Made by a program: the position numbers and the translations under genes. A DNA stretch of 27,862 nucleotides, from positions 1 through 27,862 of IMG/VR virus record IMGVR_UViG_2561511241_000007; one strand, written 5' to 3'. Shown here piece by piece: positions 3,346 to 26,881 of this stretch. Source of the DNA: a virus (taxonomy: Duplodnaviria > Heunggongvirae > Uroviricota > Caudoviricetes). Numbering within the stretch: the first letter of the stretch is position 1; each line of letters opens with the position of its first letter. The notes beneath the pieces were generated by a model. That model had not been told where the DNA came from, ran no database searches, and saw only the letters and a program-made list of their open reading frames with translations.

Positions 3346-4551
3346 TTACGCTGCTGCAATCTTCAGCAGTTTGATGGCCTGCGAATCGACCAGCATCCCG
3401 CCGGTGCGCTTGGTGGTATAAAAACCGACAAACGGTTTATTGGTGTACGGGTCACGCAGAATGCGGGTGCCGATACGGTCAACGATGGTGTAACCCCGTT
3501 TGAAGTTACCAAATGCAATGGCTTTCGCATCAGCGGCGATATCCGGCATCTGTTCGTTTTCAGCGATACCGTAACCCGCCAGAGAGGACGGCTGCCCCAG
3601 TTCCAGCCCCGGACGCCACAGATAGTTACCCTCGCTGTCTTTAAGCAGACGGATGGCAAACAGGCTGTTGTTGTTCATCATGAACTTCGCGCCAGTGCGG
3701 TGTGCCTTACGCAGCGTGTAAATCAGTTTGATAATGGCATCTGCGGTCACTGCCGTCGCTTCGCCGGATACAATATGCTGAAGTTTGCCGAACGCCCGGA
3801 CCTTGTCGGTTTCATCAGTGGACTCATACGCCAGGAACCCTTTCGGCTTCTTGGTACCATCGCCGGTGGTAAAGGCAATTTCTTCCTGTTCGGCAAATTC
3901 GGTTGCCAGCTCGCTGTTGATCCAGGCCTCCACGTTGAAGAAAGCATCATCCAGCATTTTCTGGGTGGCCTGCGGGTTACCGTAGATTTCCCCCATGAAA
4001 GGTTCAATCAGTCCCAGTTTTGAGGTGGCAGTCTGGGAGCGCGCGTCAGTCTCGCCAACCCATCCGGAAGCCGTGCCGCCCAGATTCACCAGTTTTTTGT
4101 AGTCGGAACCGCCAACGGTGATCACCGTGGCTTCCTGGCGCATCACCACTTCATCTTTCAGCAGATTGAGAATGTTGCGATCCAGTTCTTCCGGCACGGC
4201 ATAGCCGCCGTCTTCATCGGTGCCCACCTGTAATGCCTTACGCTCCAGATCGCGCAGACCATCTTCACGGCCTTTACGCAGGAAGCCCACAAACGCTTCT
4301 TTATGCTCGGTGGCCAGTTTATTTTGCGCACCACCTGCCGGACGTTTCAGCTCAAGCAGCTCTTTTTCAAGATCGCTTTTGAGATTTTCCAGCTCGCTGA
4401 GTTTTCCGTTCAGGGTTTCCACCTGCCCGGCAAGTTTGCCTTTTTCCTGCTCAATCGCCTCAACGCGCTTGTCGTTCTTTGCTTTGAAGTCGTCAAACTT
4501 CTGCTGCAGCTCCTGCGCGACCTGTTCGACATCTTTAATATCAACCGCCAT
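3346..4551 (-). CDS. major capsid protein, HK97 family
   Basis: 401-aa ORF with an N-terminal coiled-coil delta-domain-like region followed by an HK97-fold-like body; directly downstream of the prohead protease. Confidence 0.9.
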   Translation of the reverse strand: MAVDIKDVEQVAQELQQKFDDFKAKNDKRVEAIEQEKGKLAGQVETLNGKLSELENLKSDLEKELLELKRPAGGAQNKLATEHKEAFVGFLRKGREDGLRDLERKALQVGTDEDGGYAVPEELDRNILNLLKDEVVMRQEATVITVGGSDYKKLVNLGGTASGWVGETDARSQTATSKLGLIEPFMGEIYGNPQATQKMLDDAFFNVEAWINSELATEFAEQEEIAFTTGDGTKKPKGFLAYESTDETDKVRAFGKLQHIVSGEATAVTADAIIKLIYTLRKAHRTGAKFMMNNNSLFAIRLLKDSEGNYLWRPGLELGQPSSLAGYGIAENEQMPDIAADAKAIAFGNFKRGYTIVDRIGTRILRDPYTNKPFVGFYTTKRTGGMLVDSQAIKLLKIAAA

Positions 4552-9015: not shown

Positions 9016-9402
9016 TCAATTAATGCGTTCGCGCGCTGTTTTTGCTTTATGGCAGGGCCAGCACAGACTCTGCAGATTACTGTCTGCATCCGTGCCACCA
9101 TGAGCTTTCGGAATGATGTGGTCCACAGTTCTGGCTTCAACGGCTCTCCCATCGCGCAGGCAGTTCTGACACAGATGATTATCACGCTTCAGTATGCGCG
9201 CACGTATGGCATCCCATTTCGTGCCATAGCCACGCTGGTGGCGACTTAGTCCGCGTTGATGCTGTACCCAGCCTTCACCACGATGTTTATCGCAGTAGCC
9301 AGAGATGTCTGTTGTTTTGCCTGCGCAGCCACGCTTACGGCATGCGCGGGGGATTTGTGATGGCATAGAACTTCGCTCCGCTAAAAAATATTCTGCTCTC
9401 AC
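9016..9402 (-). CDS. HNH endonuclease (terminase-associated)
   Basis: C-terminal motif CQNCLRDG...VDHIIPKAHGG...NLQSLCWPCH is a classical HNH; alternative start at 9366 has a GGAG Shine-Dalgarno. Confidence 0.85.
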   Translation of the reverse strand: MRAEYFLAERSSMPSQIPRACRKRGCAGKTTDISGYCDKHRGEGWVQHQRGLSRHQRGYGTKWDAIRARILKRDNHLCQNCLRDGRAVEARTVDHIIPKAHGGTDADSNLQSLCWPCHKAKTARERIN

Positions 9403-10886: not shown

Positions 10887-11308
10887 AGATACTGCTCCAG
10901 TGGAAGCTGAAGCGCCTGTGCAATTTTCTTGAGTTGCGCTTCTTCCTCCGGAGCAATGCCGTCCTGGTCTGCGATATCCAGACACAGGCACAGCACATTC
11001 ACTGCGTCATCGGTACCGGCAACATCAGCCAGCTGACGAAGGGCTTCGGCATTGGCAGAACGCGGTGACGCTTCATAACGGGCGCGGATATTTGCACTCA
11101 TTTGTGCAATCTCACCGGAGAACGGCGCAAAGGCAGGAAGCGCTGCAATGGTTTTCTCCAGCACTGCGATTTCTTTCGCATCACAGGTGCCGTCAGCAAA
11201 AGCAATGGAATACGCACCCCAGACGGTCGCCTCCACCGCATCGCGGTTCTCCATTTTCTTTACTTCAGTAATGGCCTTGCGGGTTTTCTTTTTGAAAATA
11301 CCAAACAT
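10883..11308 (-). CDS. TerB-domain protein (tellurite-resistance TerB family-like)
   Basis: 141-aa ORF with AAGGA Shine-Dalgarno; composition and pattern match TerB-like proteins. Confidence 0.6.
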   Translation of the reverse strand: MFGIFKKKTRKAITEVKKMENRDAVEATVWGAYSIAFADGTCDAKEIAVLEKTIAALPAFAPFSGEIAQMSANIRARYEASPRSANAEALRQLADVAGTDDAVNVLCLCLDIADQDGIAPEEEAQLKKIAQALQLPLEQYL

Positions 11309-11650: not shown

Positions 11651-11682
11651 CTGTTAAAAGTATATTTACCGTTACAAATGGA

Positions 11683-11765
11683 CCGTCACCGGGGACTCGA
11701 ACCCCGCACCACAAAACAACAATACGTGTTATGCACTCTTACCCGATGAGTTAGTGACGGTTTTG
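11683..11765 (-). other. tRNA-like element (possible pseudo-tRNA)
   Basis: Minus-strand sequence has a perfect 7-bp acceptor stem (CCGTCAC/GTGACGG), D-stem, canonical T-arm (CGGGG-TTCGAGT-CCCCG) and a 3' TCCA, but an aberrant ~30-nt anticodon/variable region. Confidence 0.4.
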
Positions 11766-12043: not shown

Positions 12044-12403
12044 GTCAAATCAGTAAGTGCTGAAGAGTATTATTATAATACAAGTGAGGTGTCGGGTGCC
12101 TCCCGAAATACCTGACATTCCATCAGATACTGTAGTTTCCCGGCTAAACTACTTAAACCACCCCGCACATGGAGTTCACCTCATTTTGTGATGTTAACAA
12201 CATCGGGATAGTGCATAATCAGCCCCTGCCAGGAAATATCAAAAATCCCACCAATAATGCACTATTCCGATAGCGTCAAAAAACACAGCACCGAAATCAT
12301 AACTGGTCTCCGTTATAATTCGGGAGAGCGATAAAGGATATACGAGACCTTTCCCCGCGAAAAAAACGCCAGTGCTGAAAAACCTATACCTCATTTGTTT
12401 TTC

Positions 12404-12478
<75 letters not shown>

Positions 12479-12481
12479 ATA

Positions 12482-12559
<78 letters not shown>

Positions 12560-12560
12560 C

Positions 12561-12637
12561 TGGACCGCCACCGAGGACTCGAACCTCGCACACTCAACTT
12601 AAAGGGTTAACACTCTTTCTTGGTGAACTGGTGGCGG
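12561..12637 (-). tRNA. tRNA-like gene, anticodon uncertain (UUU read in a loop with C33), possibly degenerate
   Basis: Perfect acceptor stem and canonical T-arm (CGAGG-TTCGAGT-CCTCG); D-arm lacks canonical features and position 33 is C. Confidence 0.45.
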
Positions 12638-12638
12638 T

Positions 12639-12714
12639 TGGTGGCCCTTGCTGGATTCGAACCAGCGACCTGGCGATTATGAGTCGCTCGCTCTCACCAC
12701 TGAGCTAAAGGGCC
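12639..12714 (-). tRNA. tRNA-Ile2 / Met (anticodon CAU), ileX/ileZ-like
   Basis: Canonical 76-nt cloverleaf with perfect acceptor and T stems; closely resembles E. coli ileX as recalled. Confidence 0.85.
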
Positions 12715-13454: not shown

Positions 13455-13870
13455 TATAATTTTACTCTAATTAGCAAAAGGTTAGCTCAATTATATCCCA
13501 AAGAGGTAAATTCTCATCAACACATAAGCAAATGACTGGCTGGTGCCGCTAACACCCACAAGCCGCCCATTTACCACAAATAAAAAGGATAACCTGCCAT
13601 ACCCACCATCACAAGCCGGGTCCGTATTAACTGGCAGCGTTCGCGTGAAAGGTAAGTATTCTGCGCAATTCCCCGACTGTCGCCGGTTCGGTGATGCTTA
13701 ATTCATTAAATACCACTCTGGCGGTTTCGGCCATGTCCTACTGTTTTAGCATGCCTTTTCCCTGTTCTGGTTAACGTGACATACCAATAACTCTTGTCGA
13801 AAAAGCCAGCAAGCTGAAAGACCAGTATTCGCAACCACCAGCGTGTTTAATGTACCGCTTTTCGGGCATA

Positions 13871-15010: not shown

Positions 15011-16066
15011 TCATGCTTTCCACTTCAGGACACCCGAATTTCTCGCGTGCATTAAAAAACGAATCAGCAACAACAGCTGGCTGCCATGTTTTTCTTCAAA
15101 ATCTTTTACCCCGGCGTGCAGTTCGTTATGACATTTACGGCACAGCGGAATAACAAACAAATCGTCAGCCTTTGTTCCCATCCCTCCCAGTCCATGACCA
15201 ATGATGTGATGCGGATCATCTGCCTGATTACCGCACGTCATGCATTTCTGCGTTTTTACCCAGCGCGTGTATACAGGCATCTCTTCCCGTTGTGGTTTCT
15301 GGCGCTGGAGATACTGAGCCGGTGACTCCGGATCAACGGCAATGCTGACCACCGTCTTTTCCTGTGGCGGGTTTTGCTGGTGGGCGTGAGGCAGCGGCGC
15401 AAGATTTTTTGTGCGCTGTTTCAGTATGCTGGTGGCGGTCTGCTCTCCCGGTACGATGTCGCTTTCGCGGTACACCGAGTGGATTTTTTCCGCACGTAAC
15501 CCCAGAGAACGACGTAGTACTGCCTCCGGTAGCGCGTCTGCCACCTGATTGCAGACCGCCCACCAGGATAATTCAGCCAGCGATAATTCCCGCTCCTGTG
15601 TGCCATTCATTGCGTGACCGATGACGTCAATCATCCATGCTGACAGGTTTTGTTGTGCAAGTTGCCCGAGTGACTCTGATGTCTGGTCGCGCAGCTGGTT
15701 GTCACAGTGCCAGCACAATACCATCGCGCCAGTACCGTAACGATGTATGACGGTTTCACTGTGATGGTAGTCACCATGAGGCCACTGGCAGGATTTAATA
15801 TGACGCAGGAGCCAGTCAGACAATGCGCCTGCGCCGCCAGCAGCACGAATCACCCGTTCGTCGCTGAAAAATGGCAGTAATGATTTATCTTCCATCAGTG
15901 GCTGGCGAACGGCAGGAACAATCCCGGATGGCAGACCGCGCATGCTTTTCGGTTCCGGCTCCACCAGCACTCGAGGGTTATGAAATACCTGCATGGATTC
16001 ACGGACCGGCTTTAGCACCACCAGCCCAAGTTCCGGTACCGGAACAGGTCGAAGTAATACCCGCAC
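15011..16066 (-). CDS. DUF968-family protein (YdfU-like)
   Basis: 351-aa ORF; C-terminal Cys/His cluster characteristic of YdfU-like nin-region proteins. Confidence 0.75.
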   Translation of the reverse strand: MRVLLRPVPVPELGLVVLKPVRESMQVFHNPRVLVEPEPKSMRGLPSGIVPAVRQPLMEDKSLLPFFSDERVIRAAGGAGALSDWLLRHIKSCQWPHGDYHHSETVIHRYGTGAMVLCWHCDNQLRDQTSESLGQLAQQNLSAWMIDVIGHAMNGTQERELSLAELSWWAVCNQVADALPEAVLRRSLGLRAEKIHSVYRESDIVPGEQTATSILKQRTKNLAPLPHAHQQNPPQEKTVVSIAVDPESPAQYLQRQKPQREEMPVYTRWVKTQKCMTCGNQADDPHHIIGHGLGGMGTKADDLFVIPLCRKCHNELHAGVKDFEEKHGSQLLLLIRFLMHARNSGVLKWKA

Positions 16067-16346: not shown

Positions 16347-16419
16347 CGGTTGTCTCTGCTGGCGCAGCAGGTGCCAGTTGTTCAGGCTGGCGTGCGAATT
16401 GTAAACCAGAATGCCAGGA

Positions 16420-16446
16420 AAAAACAAAACCCGCCGAAGCGGGTTA
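16420..16446 (-). terminator. rho-independent terminator (minus strand) downstream of hokD
   Basis: Stem CCCGC-CGAA-GCGGG followed on the minus strand by TTTTGTTTTTT. Confidence 0.6.
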
Positions 16447-16513
16447 AGTGCGGGTGCGTTGAGGATGCCTGACACATCAGAGGTGGCGAGGGATTTCTCC
16501 CCCGCCAGGTCTC

Positions 16514-16669
16514 TTACTCCTCAGGTTCGTAAGCTGTGAAGACAGCGACCTCCGTCTGGCCGGTTCGGATTCGTACCTCGCAGAGGTCTTTCCTCGTTAC
16601 CAGTGCCGTCACTATGACGGTTAAACAGATGACGATCAGGGCGATTAGCATCGCCTTTTGCTGCTTCAT
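16514..16669 (-). CDS. hokD: Hok/Gef-family small toxin (HokD/RelF-like)
   Basis: 51-aa product matches E. coli HokD as recalled; the frame is open a further 19 codons upstream to 16726. Confidence 0.9.
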   Translation of the reverse strand: MKQQKAMLIALIVICLTVIVTALVTRKDLCEVRIRTGQTEVAVFTAYEPEE

Positions 16670-17293
16670 AGCCTGCTTCTCCTTGCCTTTCGGCACGTAA
16701 GAGGCTAACCTAGATTTGCCGTTCATAGATTGAGCCTCAGATTAATGTTAAGCGTCTTGCAGGACGCGTAATGTTAACTGGGGCTTTTCTCTATCTGCCT
16801 TTGGTGTTCATGCCTGAGACAGATAGCCTCAAGCACCCGCAGCCATTCTACTTAACTCCCGTTACCTCGCCAATATGAAATCAGTCAGAAAGGCGATCCA
16901 TAAGAACAACAGCAAGGCAATAAATTGCCATTACAGCAGCAATAGCCAGCGCACATTTGAGAACCAGCACCACAACCTCCTGTATTGGACGTACACCAGT
17001 CCTGATAAATATGAGGCTGTCTCGTCAGTGATTCAATACAACTATTGGGTATAGTTTCTGTGATTTTGTTCTGTAGAAATGGAACACAACAACCAGTCAC
17101 CACCAGCACTTCTTTAAATACGCCAAGTCCGACGCAAGCTAACTTTCTAGTCCGCTTTGAGCGAAAAGCAGACTGTCACGCGTTGAAGTTAATTGTATTA
17201 CTTAGATAAACACTATCATTTTCCTGACGTTAAGTTGTATCTTTGATAGGATTAAAAAACGTATAGATAGCTTATGCTACTGAGGGAATAAAA

Positions 17294-18103
17294 ATGACGA
17301 AAATTAGTGAACGATGGAAGCACAATGGCATTACTGAAGGTTATTGCAATATTTGTGGGAAATATGGCTTGCTCACAAAAGATCATGTTCCTCCAAAGTG
17401 CGCCATAACCTTAGGCCCTGTTTTGCAGAAAACAGTTAGCGAATTTTTTGGTATTCAGGAACCAGTTAAACCATTAAATGCTAAAAATGGCTCTTATTTC
17501 AGAACCATTTGCAGCCACTGTAACAATAAGGTATTAGGTGGGCTCGATGTTGCAATTGAAAATGTAACAAAGTCCTTTAAAGAACAGTTAAGTCGATATA
17601 TGAATGGTATGAATGTATATCCATTCATTAGAATACCTTTTGATAGCATATCTTTCACTAAGGCTATGATTGGGCACGTGCTATCAGCAACTTCAGTTGA
17701 AGATTGTAAAAAAGAACCCGTAGATAGCCCCTTCTATACACCTTTAAAGGATTATGTTTTGGGTAAAAATTCAAGTTTTGAGGAAACTCATGATATTTAC
17801 TACTGGTTTTACCCACACAGAATGCACATATCCGCTCAAAGTGTAGCATTTATGAACGAAGGACATGTGGCATTTATTTGTGCTTTACATTTTTTCCCTA
17901 TCGGTTTTATTATCACAATGAAAAATGAAGGAACATACCCTGCCCACTCTACAAAATTAGAACTTGAAGATAAATTCCTTACATTTAATATGACCTCTAT
18001 AAATTATGAGTATACGACATTTCCATTTGTAAATCTTAAGGGAAACCAAATGTATGCGATAAGCAACGGTCATACTTGTGTGAGTTATCCAATAATTAAG
18101 TGA
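17294..18103 (+). CDS. HNH/zinc-finger nuclease-motif protein with an uncharacterised C-terminal domain (cargo gene)
   Basis: 269-aa ORF with a GAGGGA Shine-Dalgarno; N-terminal C-x2-C...DH...N...C-x-H-C-N pattern; much lower GC than neighbours; opposite strand to all flanking phage genes. Confidence 0.7.
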   Translation: MTKISERWKHNGITEGYCNICGKYGLLTKDHVPPKCAITLGPVLQKTVSEFFGIQEPVKPLNAKNGSYFRTICSHCNNKVLGGLDVAIENVTKSFKEQLSRYMNGMNVYPFIRIPFDSISFTKAMIGHVLSATSVEDCKKEPVDSPFYTPLKDYVLGKNSSFEETHDIYYWFYPHRMHISAQSVAFMNEGHVAFICALHFFPIGFIITMKNEGTYPAHSTKLELEDKFLTFNMTSINYEYTTFPFVNLKGNQMYAISNGHTCVSYPIIK

Positions 18104-18249
18104 CGGCTAAATCATACAATCTACGCATGTTCACTTTCTACATATACCATCTATAATGTCCGCTGTTGGCACAAAGCGGACAACCACGCTAGCTCTACCC
18201 TGTGCCACAAAATGTCAATTTGCATCTGAACTAATGCACTTTAATCTCG

Positions 18250-18672
18250 TCACTTCAATAAATACCGAACATCCCCCTGATAAAACGACAATATGCGCTG
18301 CATAACTTCACTCTTCCGGCACTCGCGACAGATTATGTTCTGACGCCTGTCGTAGCGACGTATTTCTCCGTCAGGTAATGACCAGATAAGGTCCGGATCA
18401 ACCGCAGATGGTTTCTTCAGCTTTGCCCTTGAGAGCTTTTTACGGGCATTTTGCCAGTCCTTACGCGCCTGTTCAGACGGGAATAACCCGTAACCAGAGT
18501 TGTATACATCGCCGCTGGCAACCAGCTCTCTTGCGAGAACGCTCATCAGATATCTTGTCGCACCTGTTTTGACTTCCAGTTGCCGTAACGTCTCACGCCC
18601 ACTCTGGCGTACGAGTTCAACAACCTGCCCTTTAATTTTTTCTCGCTCTTCTTGTGTAAAAACTTTTGCCAC
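18250..18672 (-). CDS. hypothetical protein
   Basis: 140-aa ORF immediately downstream of the O-like initiator, where a helicase loader would be expected; contains a CxxC pair. Confidence 0.45.
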   Translation of the reverse strand: MAKVFTQEEREKIKGQVVELVRQSGRETLRQLEVKTGATRYLMSVLARELVASGDVYNSGYGLFPSEQARKDWQNARKKLSRAKLKKPSAVDPDLIWSLPDGEIRRYDRRQNIICRECRKSEVMQRILSFYQGDVRYLLK

Positions 18673-18712
18673 AAGTCCTCCTGAAAATTACCTCATGACC
18701 AGAAATCAACAC

Positions 18713-19854: not shown

Positions 19855-20280
19855 TCAATGTACTGCCACAGCATTTCCTGCCGGGCCACCACGGTTCATC
19901 TGATTGAAACCGGCGATTGCCACTGCGACAAAATCATCAGCGTCTCTCACCAATCGCTCCCGCGTCTCCACCAGCTCCCGAAAATAAGCTGAACTGTGGC
20001 TGCGCATTCTGGCCACCAGCAAAGGTGGCATTGCCTTTTCGATCGCTGGTAACAACGCCTGAATTTTTTCAACTGCATCAGGGGTGTCTTTCTCTACCCA
20101 GCGGAAAATTTTCTGGGTATTGCGAGCCAGGGCTTCCGGATGGCTGTCGTCATACAGTTCAGGAAACGTCATACCCAACTCAAAATAAGCCTGGGTTATT
20201 CCAGCTGCTGGAACTTTTTCGCCATCAGGACGCGCCCAGGCATTCATCGCCATGCGGATGTGTTCATGCTTGATTTTCAT
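19855..20280 (-). CDS. YdaT-like protein (CII functional analogue family)
   Basis: 141-aa ORF starting MKIKHEHI, as I recall for Rac YdaT; sits directly downstream of the cro-like gene. Confidence 0.6.
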   Translation of the reverse strand: MKIKHEHIRMAMNAWARPDGEKVPAAGITQAYFELGMTFPELYDDSHPEALARNTQKIFRWVEKDTPDAVEKIQALLPAIEKAMPPLLVARMRSHSSAYFRELVETRERLVRDADDFVAVAIAGFNQMNRGGPAGNAVAVH

Positions 20281-20507
20281 GAATCCCCCCCTTGGTTAGA
20301 AGGCGGATTATGATCAGAACCGGGAATGACAACCGTCGGTATGTGTAACTCATATTTGAGCGCCCCGGCAGTGACAGCCTGAATTAGCAACGCCCATTTC
20401 CACGGAACCTCTTCCCCCCACATGCTGACTGTGGTTTTTGACGTTCCTAGAGCTGCGGCTGTTTTAACAACTCCGCCAAAATAGCCTAATACTTCTGATT
20501 TTTTCAT
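20277..20507 (-). CDS. Cro-like HTH regulator (YdaS/DicC-like)
   Basis: 76 aa from ATG 20507 with a GGAG Shine-Dalgarno; HTH region VVKTAAALGTSKTTVSMW; divergent from the CI gene. Confidence 0.7.
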   Translation of the reverse strand: MKKSEVLGYFGGVVKTAAALGTSKTTVSMWGEEVPWKWALLIQAVTAGALKYELHIPTVVIPGSDHNPPSNQGGDS

Positions 20508-25600: not shown

Positions 25601-25804
25601 ATGAGCAGCTTATTTTTAACCGAAGATGAATTGCTAATATTAACGGGCTGCAAATATGCAAGCCACCAGCGAAAATGGTTAATGGAAAACGGGCTTCCGT
25701 TCTATACCAATCGTAGTGGCAAACCGATTGTCAGCCGGGATCTATTTACCTGCAATAAAACTTTACCACCACGCGAGGTAGAGCCGAATTTTGGTGCGAT
25801 CTGA
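25601..25804 (+). CDS. putative excisionase
   Basis: 67-aa ORF immediately upstream of and overlapping the integrase start (ATGA-type overlap). Confidence 0.5.
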   Translation: MSSLFLTEDELLILTGCKYASHQRKWLMENGLPFYTNRSGKPIVSRDLFTCNKTLPPREVEPNFGAI

Positions 25805-26829
25805 TGGGAAGACGAAGGAAAAATCCTGAACACGAAAAATTACCTCCAAATGTATACCCAAATAAATATAGTTATGTATGGAAACCAACATCCAGAGAAT
25901 CTGTCACACTAACCGCCATCAAGGATGGTTTAGCTGCTTTATGGAAAAAGTATGAGGAAACTGTAAATAATCGCGATCGTGCAATGACATTCGGTCGCTT
26001 GTGGGAAAAATTCCTCGCCAGCGCCTATTACAGTGACCTCAGTCCAAGAACACAAAAAGATTATCTGCAACATCAAAAAAAGTTGCTTGCCGTATTCGGT
26101 AAGGTGCCGGCAGATTCCATAAAACCAGAACACATCCGTCGATACATGGACAAGAGAGGGGAACAGAGTAAAACGCAAGCCAACCATGAAAAAAGCAGTA
26201 TGTCCCGCGTTTACAGTTGGGGGTATGAGCGAGGGTACGTGAAGGCTAACCCATGTGCAGGTGTAAGTAAATTCAAGGCCAAAAACCGCGAACGATATGT
26301 AACCGACAAAGAATACCAGGCAGTATTAAGCGTTGCACCTCTTCCTGTTTTTATCGCAATGGAAATTGCCTATCTGTGTGCAGCGAGGGTTTCCGATGTG
26401 TTATCGCTGAAATGGGAGCAGATAGGAAACGACGGGATCTTTATCCAGCAAGGGAAAACAGGGAAAAAACAGATAAAAGCATGGAGTCCACGATTACAGG
26501 CGGCGATCGAAAAAGCAAAACAGTTACCAACATCCGCCTATGTAATCAGCAATCAATACGGCAACCGATATGTGTACAAAGGCTTTAACGAAATGTGGGT
26601 AGAAGCAAGAAATCGCGCAGGCAAAATTTCAGGTATTTTAACCGACTTCACCTTTCATGATCTGAAGGCGAAAGGAATTTCAGACTATGAAGGAAGCAGT
26701 CGGGATAAGCAACTTTTCTCTGGTCACAAAACCGAGGGGCAAGTGCTAATCTATGACAGGAAGGTTAAAGTTTCACCGACACTTGATGTCCCGTTACCTG
26801 AAAATATTCCAAGAAAATATTCCAAGTAA
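25804..26829 (+). CDS. int: tyrosine-type site-specific integrase
   Basis: 341-aa ORF with lambda-integrase-like organisation; ends 53 bp from the 3' end of tRNA-Ser. Confidence 0.9.
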   Translation: MGRRRKNPEHEKLPPNVYPNKYSYVWKPTSRESVTLTAIKDGLAALWKKYEETVNNRDRAMTFGRLWEKFLASAYYSDLSPRTQKDYLQHQKKLLAVFGKVPADSIKPEHIRRYMDKRGEQSKTQANHEKSSMSRVYSWGYERGYVKANPCAGVSKFKAKNRERYVTDKEYQAVLSVAPLPVFIAMEIAYLCAARVSDVLSLKWEQIGNDGIFIQQGKTGKKQIKAWSPRLQAAIEKAKQLPTSAYVISNQYGNRYVYKGFNEMWVEARNRAGKISGILTDFTFHDLKAKGISDYEGSSRDKQLFSGHKTEGQVLIYDRKVKVSPTLDVPLPENIPRKYSK

Positions 26830-26881
26830 TTCCAAGTGTGATTTTTGTCACTGACTTAATGATGTGTAAGTGATTGAATTT

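Follow-up and report, generated by a model that had tools for sequence, protein, structure and literature searches.

HNH nucleases acting as effectors and single-gene systems residing in hotspots of the P2/P4 type are already well known. The int-psu locus of P4 has been described as the P4 defence hotspot (PMC9122126), from which six of eight randomly chosen unknown loci were found to be protective against phages (PMC13586616), and the Z/fun locus of P2 likewise represents a defence hotspot (PMC13586616; bioRxiv 10.1101/2024.10.15.618418). One of the single-gene systems of such hotspots, a DUF4238 protein, is without known molecular function according to Rousset et al. 2022. As for the nuclease domains, HNH_5 belongs to those HNH families of Pfam with which ABC-ATPase defence systems are annotated (PMC11464382) and was placed in His-Me finger groups 1 and 8 by Jablonska et al. 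(PMC5714182). The present study concerns a protein of 269 amino acids (aa) encoded by a prophage of the class Caudoviricetes (IMG/VR record IMGVR_UViG_2561511241_000007), the whole stretch of which, 27,862 nucleotides (nt) in length, was analysed and is referred to below as the window. The open reading frame (ORF) of this protein, 17294–18103 on the plus strand, is the cargo of a mobile cassette situated between hokD and a DUF977 gene, and its product is probably a single-gene defence nuclease, an anti-phage role being suggested by its location and domain content.

The HNH core and the C-terminal region

The N-terminal part of the 269-aa protein carries the motif C18-x2-C21, D30-H31, N65 and C73-S-H-C76-N77, followed by the tail L81-G82-x2-D85, with residues 35–64 forming an insertion between the two halves of the HNH core. 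Conservation was evaluated on 129 representatives of the family sharing 20–45% identity. Residues C18, C21, H31, C73, C76, N77, G127, W171 and P202 are invariant in this set, and G16, L27, D30 (present in 96% of the representatives), P33, P34, L81, G82, D85, H128, A131 and P244 are conserved in at least 90%; the middle asparagine of the classic HNH motif (N65) is not strictly conserved. The features expected of a zinc-finger His-Me nuclease can be recognised in this pattern: the invariant H31, in the position of the general base, closes together with D30 the strand 24–31 of the structural model; the invariant N77, in the position of a metal ligand, lies in the model helix 74–80 directly after C76 and is aligned with the CN of PtuB; and the four invariant cysteines C18, C21, C73 and C76 correspond to the Cys4 structural zinc site of the zinc-finger HNH subclass.

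Comparison with a bona fide Septu PtuB by hhalign aligned CxxC..DH..N..CxxCN of both proteins (E 9.7e-5) with a gap of 22 residues. Among the 129 relatives, 40 matched Pfam HNH_5 at E ≤ 0.01 (best E 1.9e-6), two matched Endonuclease_7 and two the PADLOC model of PtuB. The HNH_5 matches are split because the 22-residue insertion separates both halves of the model, and by its motif the 269-aa protein is HNH_5-like, divided by an insertion, rather than a formal member of HNH_5. The protein is very likely a real HNH nuclease. The N-terminal HNH/zinc-finger pattern proposed in an earlier note, which had been made from the letters of this DNA, was thus borne out by the invariant Cys4, His and Asn and by the HNH_5 and PtuB matches.

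The rest of the protein, about 180 residues, matches no family or solved fold searched; the same note had been unable to place the C-terminal sequence. Conserved positions are nevertheless found outside the HNH core, namely G127, H128, A131, W171, Y173, P174, F200, P202 and P244. The AlphaFold2 model of the whole protein consists of one compact body (predicted local distance difference test, pLDDT, 93.6; predicted template modelling score, pTM, 0.92). Sequence and profile searches of the PDB with the 269-aa protein gave no match, nor did Foldseek against the PDB and BFVD at E ≤ 1e-3. Profile and PADLOC checks, which had been recommended in the earlier note, returned nothing above threshold, Pfam and NCBIfam included, and among the 129 relatives PADLOC yielded scattered weak matches only. 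No characterised nuclease, homing or housekeeping, emerged as a homologue; one would have spoken against the defence role suggested in that note. A full-length match was obtained to PHROG 21495 (E 1.9e-195), the function of which is unassigned there.

An exhaustive search with a hidden Markov model indicated a family of 1,783 clusters at 50% identity (E ≤ 0.001), 347 of them at E ≤ 1e-30; nearly all members have approximately 260–290 aa and are matched over their full length. A word-indexed search found 93 homologues of about 270 aa, all of them Gammaproteobacteria-like, and throughout the Gammaproteobacteria most members are carried on chromosomes or as cargo of prophages. Homologues with 41% identity were also seen on two short contigs labelled Streptomyces (L030 and L041; 3,095 and 295 nt), which are probably contaminants, since nearly all other members found are gammaproteobacterial. 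In databases the 269-aa protein appears as 'hypothetical protein', 'chaperonin' and 'metal-binding protein'. The name 'chaperonin', present on hundreds of records, was supported by none of the searches and appears to be a propagated misannotation. What is new is a family for which no Pfam, NCBIfam or PADLOC model and no mention in the literature was found, its unusual traits being the unplaced C-terminal region and the palindrome-bounded architecture of exchange described below.

A palindrome-bounded cassette in the hokD–DUF977 slot

The part of the window from 16400 to 18700, the only stretch compared, is 100% identical to the chromosome of Escherichia coli UMNK88, where it is located in a Qin/Rac-like lambdoid prophage and the product of the gene is deposited in RefSeq as 'hypothetical protein' (WP_000161640.1). 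The translation is the one stated in the earlier note. Between the structural genes and the CI-like repressor (about 20600), the 269-aa gene is the only one on the plus strand, the other annotated genes being on the minus strand. The guanine plus cytosine (GC) content of the gene is 0.351, compared with a window mean of 0.492, and 0.383 for the span 16727–18250 that had been delimited as an island in the earlier note. Among all sliding windows of 1,031 nt (mean 0.493, standard deviation 0.046) the minimum, 0.355, begins at 17151, approximately three standard deviations below the mean. An AT-rich segment with one gene opposite to its neighbours, as had been described, was therefore recovered by ORF, strand and windowed GC, the lowest-GC kilobase of the whole window starting at 17151. 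The left end of the island had to be moved. It does not start at 16727, because 16664–16838 on the minus strand corresponds to sok, the antisense RNA that belongs to hokD (Rfam match of 110 bits, E 1.7e-25); the left 110–150 nt of the proposed island belong to the hok/sok regulatory region and the cassette itself spans 17150–18181. The hokD/sok type I toxin-antitoxin locus is complete (16514–16838, minus strand), with a mok-like ORF of 70 aa (16514–16726) overlapping hokD.

The cassette is present at 92–99.7% nucleotide identity in four other settings, the matches covering 17150–18173 in a conjugative plasmid, 17151–18173 in Kluyvera, 17154–18181 in Erwinia and 17208–18181 in the P2-like phage pro147. 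Conversely, in prophages with other cargo the homology of the flanks extends up to 17171–17173 and resumes from 18155, so that both junctions fall within a 24-nt imperfect palindrome. The pattern GTCCGCT-N10-AGCNGAC of this palindrome occurs in the window only at the two ends of the cassette, with 0.01 occurrences expected by chance. Two other genes are enclosed by the same pair, one for 314 aa in E. coli 98209 and one for 247 aa in Erwinia, the product of the latter looking DJ-1/PfpI-like by eye; paired copies lie at 2243–2266 and 3459–3482 of locus L052 (E. coli 98209) and at 11260–11283 and 12229–12252 of locus L005. The 314-aa gene (L052, 2477–3421, plus strand) adjoins PD-T7-1; its protein has no PADLOC match and shows by eye a GIY-YIG-like motif (GVYLIV..VYVGVS..R..EH), which makes it a further nuclease candidate.

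The exact 24-nt element was found in 116 IMG/VR contigs (loci L067–L182), in 56 of them in at least two copies, and the paired copies enclose at least 20 size classes of cargo. In all 72 viral contigs containing both, the distance between the element and the DUF977 gene stays within 300 nt; the element marks the DUF977-proximal border of the lambdoid slot. An intrinsic terminator was also considered for the right palindrome and was not convincing. Since there is no T-run and the folding is no better than that of shuffled sequence (z −0.79), the palindrome may rather represent a recombination boundary for swapping of cargo.

The slot itself is occupied differently among related prophages. The window ceases to be homologous to K-12 at 16683, and in the Qin prophage of K-12 relE-relB, followed by ydfV and flxA, are found directly beside hokD, in agreement with the claim of the earlier note that the gene stands where Qin carries relBE. 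The variability also claimed there is evident from relBE, PD-T7-1 (E 7e-157), PDC-S39/DUF4209 (E 2e-102) and a CapRel-like protein as alternative occupants. The last of these, 341 aa long and encoded in a viral contig, matches over its full length PDB entry 7ztb (E 2.6e-34), which we take to be CapRel SJ46. Another prophage contig has a Cap5-like HNH-ATPase in this slot. Further occupants are a DUF5677 protein and an α/β hydrolase, and AbiH-like and HEPN-like cargo was recognised by eye only.

Distribution and genomic surroundings

Of 5,426 complete E. coli genomes, 141 (about 2.6%) have the gene, 62 of them with the full 2.3-kb region, while 4,076 have the DUF977 gene that flanks it. Among 50,697 phage records deposited, the 269-aa gene was found in 3. 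A close copy is found in P2-like phages between the genes for tail-fibre assembly and tail sheath, a position identical to the Z/fun hotspot, and in a P4-like satellite of Serratia fonticola no gene other than a homologue with 39% identity lies between int and psu. As cargo of defence hotspots the family is thus represented at P4 int-psu, at P2 Z/fun and in the lambdoid hokD–DUF977 slot. Copies on plasmids, most of them predicted to be conjugative, come from E. coli, Klebsiella, Shigella and Enterobacter, with at least 99% protein identity in 48 of 60 records, and copies of the protein that are 100% identical occur in all four genera; prophages, too, contain copies of 99–100% identity. In one plasmid examined, the gene is located beside IS26 and an integrase gene.

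No neighbour or partner gene was conserved across 41 genome loci, where an ATPase, an antitoxin and a methylase had been sought; the neighbours are integrases, resolvases and assorted cargo. The homologue in Pectobacterium is situated in an int-AlpA-primase island beside ParE/RelB, that in Vibrio beside an inovirus and a DUF2726 gene, that in Plesiomonas in an island with AbiU2 and Shedu-type domains, and that in Pseudomonas adjoins a complete Septu system. Other homologues lie beside SMODS+2TM genes.

Proposed function and alternative explanations

On balance, the cassette product is regarded as a stand-alone immune nuclease carried as swappable cargo of mobile elements, a defence role being moderately likely. 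The N-terminal 85 residues would form a zinc-stabilised HNH (ββα-metal) site for DNA cleavage, in which H31 would serve as the general base and the catalytic metal would be bound by D30 and N77. The remainder of the chain, predicted to pack on this core as one compact body, might keep the nuclease silent or untargeted in the healthy cell until cutting is licensed by a cue specific to phages, be it one of their proteins or an unusual feature of DNA. The lysogen, and hence the prophage, would thereby be protected from competing phages. A broader view, in which the protein represents a widespread and so far unnamed family of single-chain immune nucleases combining an HNH core with a sensor or targeting module whose fold is unseen in the PDB, and in which the cassette is a unit of palindrome-bounded (24-nt hairpin) cargo exchange that allows defence genes to pass among lambdoid prophages, P2-like phages and plasmids, is put forward only tentatively.

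Several observations weigh against a role in defence. PADLOC-DB 2.0 gave zero matches for the 269-aa protein at E ≤ 10, and neither the literature searched by accession nor the supplements of DefensePredictor and Rousset mention it. The gathering threshold of HNH_5 (PF14279), 27.5 bits, is not reached by the protein itself (11.6 bits, E 0.29, residues 18–35) or by ten relatives scoring 14.7–18.5 bits, each on one half of the model. The gating ascribed to the C-terminal part is purely inferred, its fold matching nothing, and no σ70 promoter was recognised upstream of the gene in a consensus scan. The surroundings are not uniformly suggestive of defence, either: equivalent cassettes also carry genes of non-defence type (DJ-1/PfpI-like, α/β hydrolase), hotspots also carry non-defence morons, and certain homologues have housekeeping genes as neighbours, no marker of a mobile element being visible there. 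Finally, a Rac-like prophage contains a truncated copy, and in one strain an IS481-family transposase is annotated within the matched stretch.

Of the more specific explanations, modification-dependent restriction resembling type IV is a sub-mechanism of defence, in which the C-terminal part would read a modified base, or some other mark specific to phage DNA, and the HNH site would cut DNA so marked and no other, so that no methylase, immunity protein or cell death would be needed. It agrees with a single gene that has no partner in the 41 loci, with the one compact body of the model (in which, outside the motif, W171 is invariant and H128 at least 90% conserved), and with the toleration of identical copies in four genera, as expected if host DNA is not the substrate; it is this portability across hosts that favours it. 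No recognisable reader domain for modified DNA (SRA, EVE/PUA, McrB-N etc.) was found in the protein, membership in type IV restriction was rejected for that reason, and the explanation is considered rather unlikely. A selfish, free-standing cassette of the homing type, which would cut cassette-free alleles and be copied in by repair with no benefit for the host, could account for an HNH core encoded with its own ribosome-binding site in an AT-rich 1-kb cassette, on the opposite strand between conserved phage genes, with repeats at both ends and near-identical copies in unrelated elements. Homing is disfavoured because the slot, instead of alternating between empty and filled alleles, holds many unrelated cargoes with the same palindromes, and because the insertion contexts are completely different between elements. 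Furthermore, NUMOD, IENR, AP2 and HTH modules were absent from Pfam scans of the protein and its relatives, the family is mostly chromosomal or prophage cargo, and so few deposited phage records carry the gene; with no accessory DNA-binding modules and no single cognate site with cassette-free alleles, membership among HNH homing endonucleases was rejected, and this origin is improbable.

A gene serving its carrier element, by processing the element's own DNA, degrading host DNA or countering host defence, would be in keeping with the presence on phages, satellites and plasmids and with one Enterobacter prophage in which the gene adjoins the terminase genes; HNH proteins assist cos cleavage in some phages. 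However, most relatives of each element lack the gene (141 E. coli genomes have it, versus 4,076 with the DUF977 gene), it is transcribed against the surrounding operon and it occupies sites known for dispensable cargo, and the prophage already has a terminase-associated HNH gene, which leaves such a service with little probability. The least probable explanation, and a very unlikely one, is that the protein binds zinc without any catalysis and acts in a structural or regulatory capacity, as the label 'metal-binding protein' might imply. The sub-threshold HNH matches of the window protein and the not strictly conserved middle asparagine could be read in that way; yet the invariant residues are precisely the catalytic ones (H31 and N77, with D30 nearly so) together with the four cysteines, and inactive HNH relatives usually lose the histidine.

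If an anti-phage phenotype of the proposed defence nuclease were confirmed, a compact, partner-free nuclease of 269 aa would be added to the defence repertoire, one that reaches about 1,800 clusters across bacteria as well as conjugative plasmids of clinical Enterobacterales. Its unplaced C-terminal two-thirds would then control or aim an HNH site in a novel manner. A searchable marker for more cargo genes is offered by the palindrome-bounded slot, which may also point to a mechanism by which defence genes are exchanged as rapidly as has been described for P2 and P4 elements.

Features of the cassette and of the remaining prophage

The features of the cassette are collected in Table 1. A second ORF was not found inside it. 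An antisense stop-free frame of about 61 codons inside the gene (17664–17849, minus strand) persists to 77% nucleotide identity and is then lost; it is probably a frame effect and not a gene.

Table 1. Positions in the window of the cassette, its bordering palindromes and the parts of its gene.
Feature	Position	Strand	Basis or remark
Mobile cassette, about 1.03 kb (left palindrome, upstream region, gene, right palindrome)	17150–18181	+	nucleotide homology, shared flanks, GC
Left imperfect palindrome GTCCGCTTTGAGCGAAAAGCAGAC	17150–17173		pattern GTCCGCT-N10-AGCNGAC
Shine-Dalgarno-like GAGGGA, 6 nt 5' of ATG	17282–17287	+	read from sequence; kept in cassette copies
269-aa HNH-type gene	17294–18103	+	WP_000161640.1; PHROG 21495 full-length match; AlphaFold2 model
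HNH / His-Me finger core, codons 16–85 (putative)	17339–17548	+	conserved columns, hhalign to PtuB, split HNH_5 matches
Codons 86–269, helical segment and β-rich region	17549–18100	+	without known family or fold
Right palindrome GTCCGCTGTTGGCACAAAGCGGAC, 8-bp stem, 10-nt loop, no T-run	18158–18181		same pattern

Beyond the cassette, hokD has a second small variable spot on its opposite flank: relative to the window, an insertion of 665 bp at about 16426–16444 is present in many strains (e.g. AH25; L002, 4046–4691) and carries a gene for a hypothetical protein of 129 aa (WP_000737636.1) with no PADLOC match. Downstream of hokD, the Hfq-binding small RNA isrK is matched below threshold in Rfam (16424–16505, minus strand; 27 bits against a gathering value of 50, E 0.003). 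The prophage has three HNH-type genes in total, including a terminase-adjacent HNH endonuclease gene (9016–9366, minus strand) and a gene for a DUF968/YdfU-like protein (15011–16066, minus strand) with a C-terminal CxxC..HH..CxxCH motif of the His-Me finger type. A tRNA cluster at 12404–12714 (minus strand) was read by ARAGORN as Gly(tcc), Thr(tgt) and Met(cat), the last being tRNA-Ile in RefSeq, and a tRNA-Val(aac) at 11679–11760 (minus strand), also from ARAGORN, is absent from the RefSeq annotation. The prophage looks defective, because according to RefSeq a Cro/CI-family regulator, the integrase and a TrmB-family regulator are frameshifted (about 20264–20507, 25804–26854 and 13571–13734) and two tail protein genes are partial.

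Comparison with known systems

Some occupants of the same position by hokD or DUF977, i.e. relBE/hokD, PD-T7-1, PDC-S39 and CapRel, share nothing more with the 269-aa protein, being unrelated proteins with unrelated mechanisms. Type II toxin-antitoxin membership was rejected for want of a second ORF in the cassette, of antisense frames kept beyond close relatives and of a conserved neighbour. The 'HNH1' protein of DefensePredictor (WP_252151320.1, 301 aa) looks unrelated as well, set apart by description only. With the single-gene systems compared from the P2/P4 hotspots, the DUF4238 protein (Rousset et al. 2022) and Toga and Reve (PMC13586616), no relationship was seen either, since none of the 129 family members matches DUF4238 or the other Pfam/PADLOC models for those systems; moreover, these three have demonstrated phenotypes, whereas the 269-aa protein is a candidate. 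McrA and other type IV HNH restriction enzymes were compared as well: McrA has its HNH domain at the C-terminus, behind a domain that binds DNA, whereas in the 269-aa protein the HNH part is N-terminal and the rest is unlike known reader domains.

In PtuB of Septu, the elements of the zinc-finger HNH core follow one another as in the 269-aa protein, CxxC..(D/E)H..N..CxxCN; both proteins occur in defence islands, and two members of the family are matched by the PADLOC PtuB model. PtuB, however, works with the ABC-type ATPase PtuA, whereas the 269-aa protein has no conserved ATPase neighbour; in addition, its motif is interrupted by the 22-residue insertion, and it is longer by about 180 residues without known fold. 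A PtuA-like gene was present within two genes in only 2 of 37 loci, and membership in Septu was rejected; at one of the loci (L024), the PtuA-like gene is followed by its own HNH (PtuB) gene, beside the family homologue. In architecture, the model proposed for the 269-aa protein, an HNH nuclease fused to a gating sensor, is that of Cap5, the SAVED-HNH effector of CBASS; Cap5 requires a cyclic-nucleotide synthase, whereas neither a SAVED fold nor a cyclase partner was found for the 269-aa protein.

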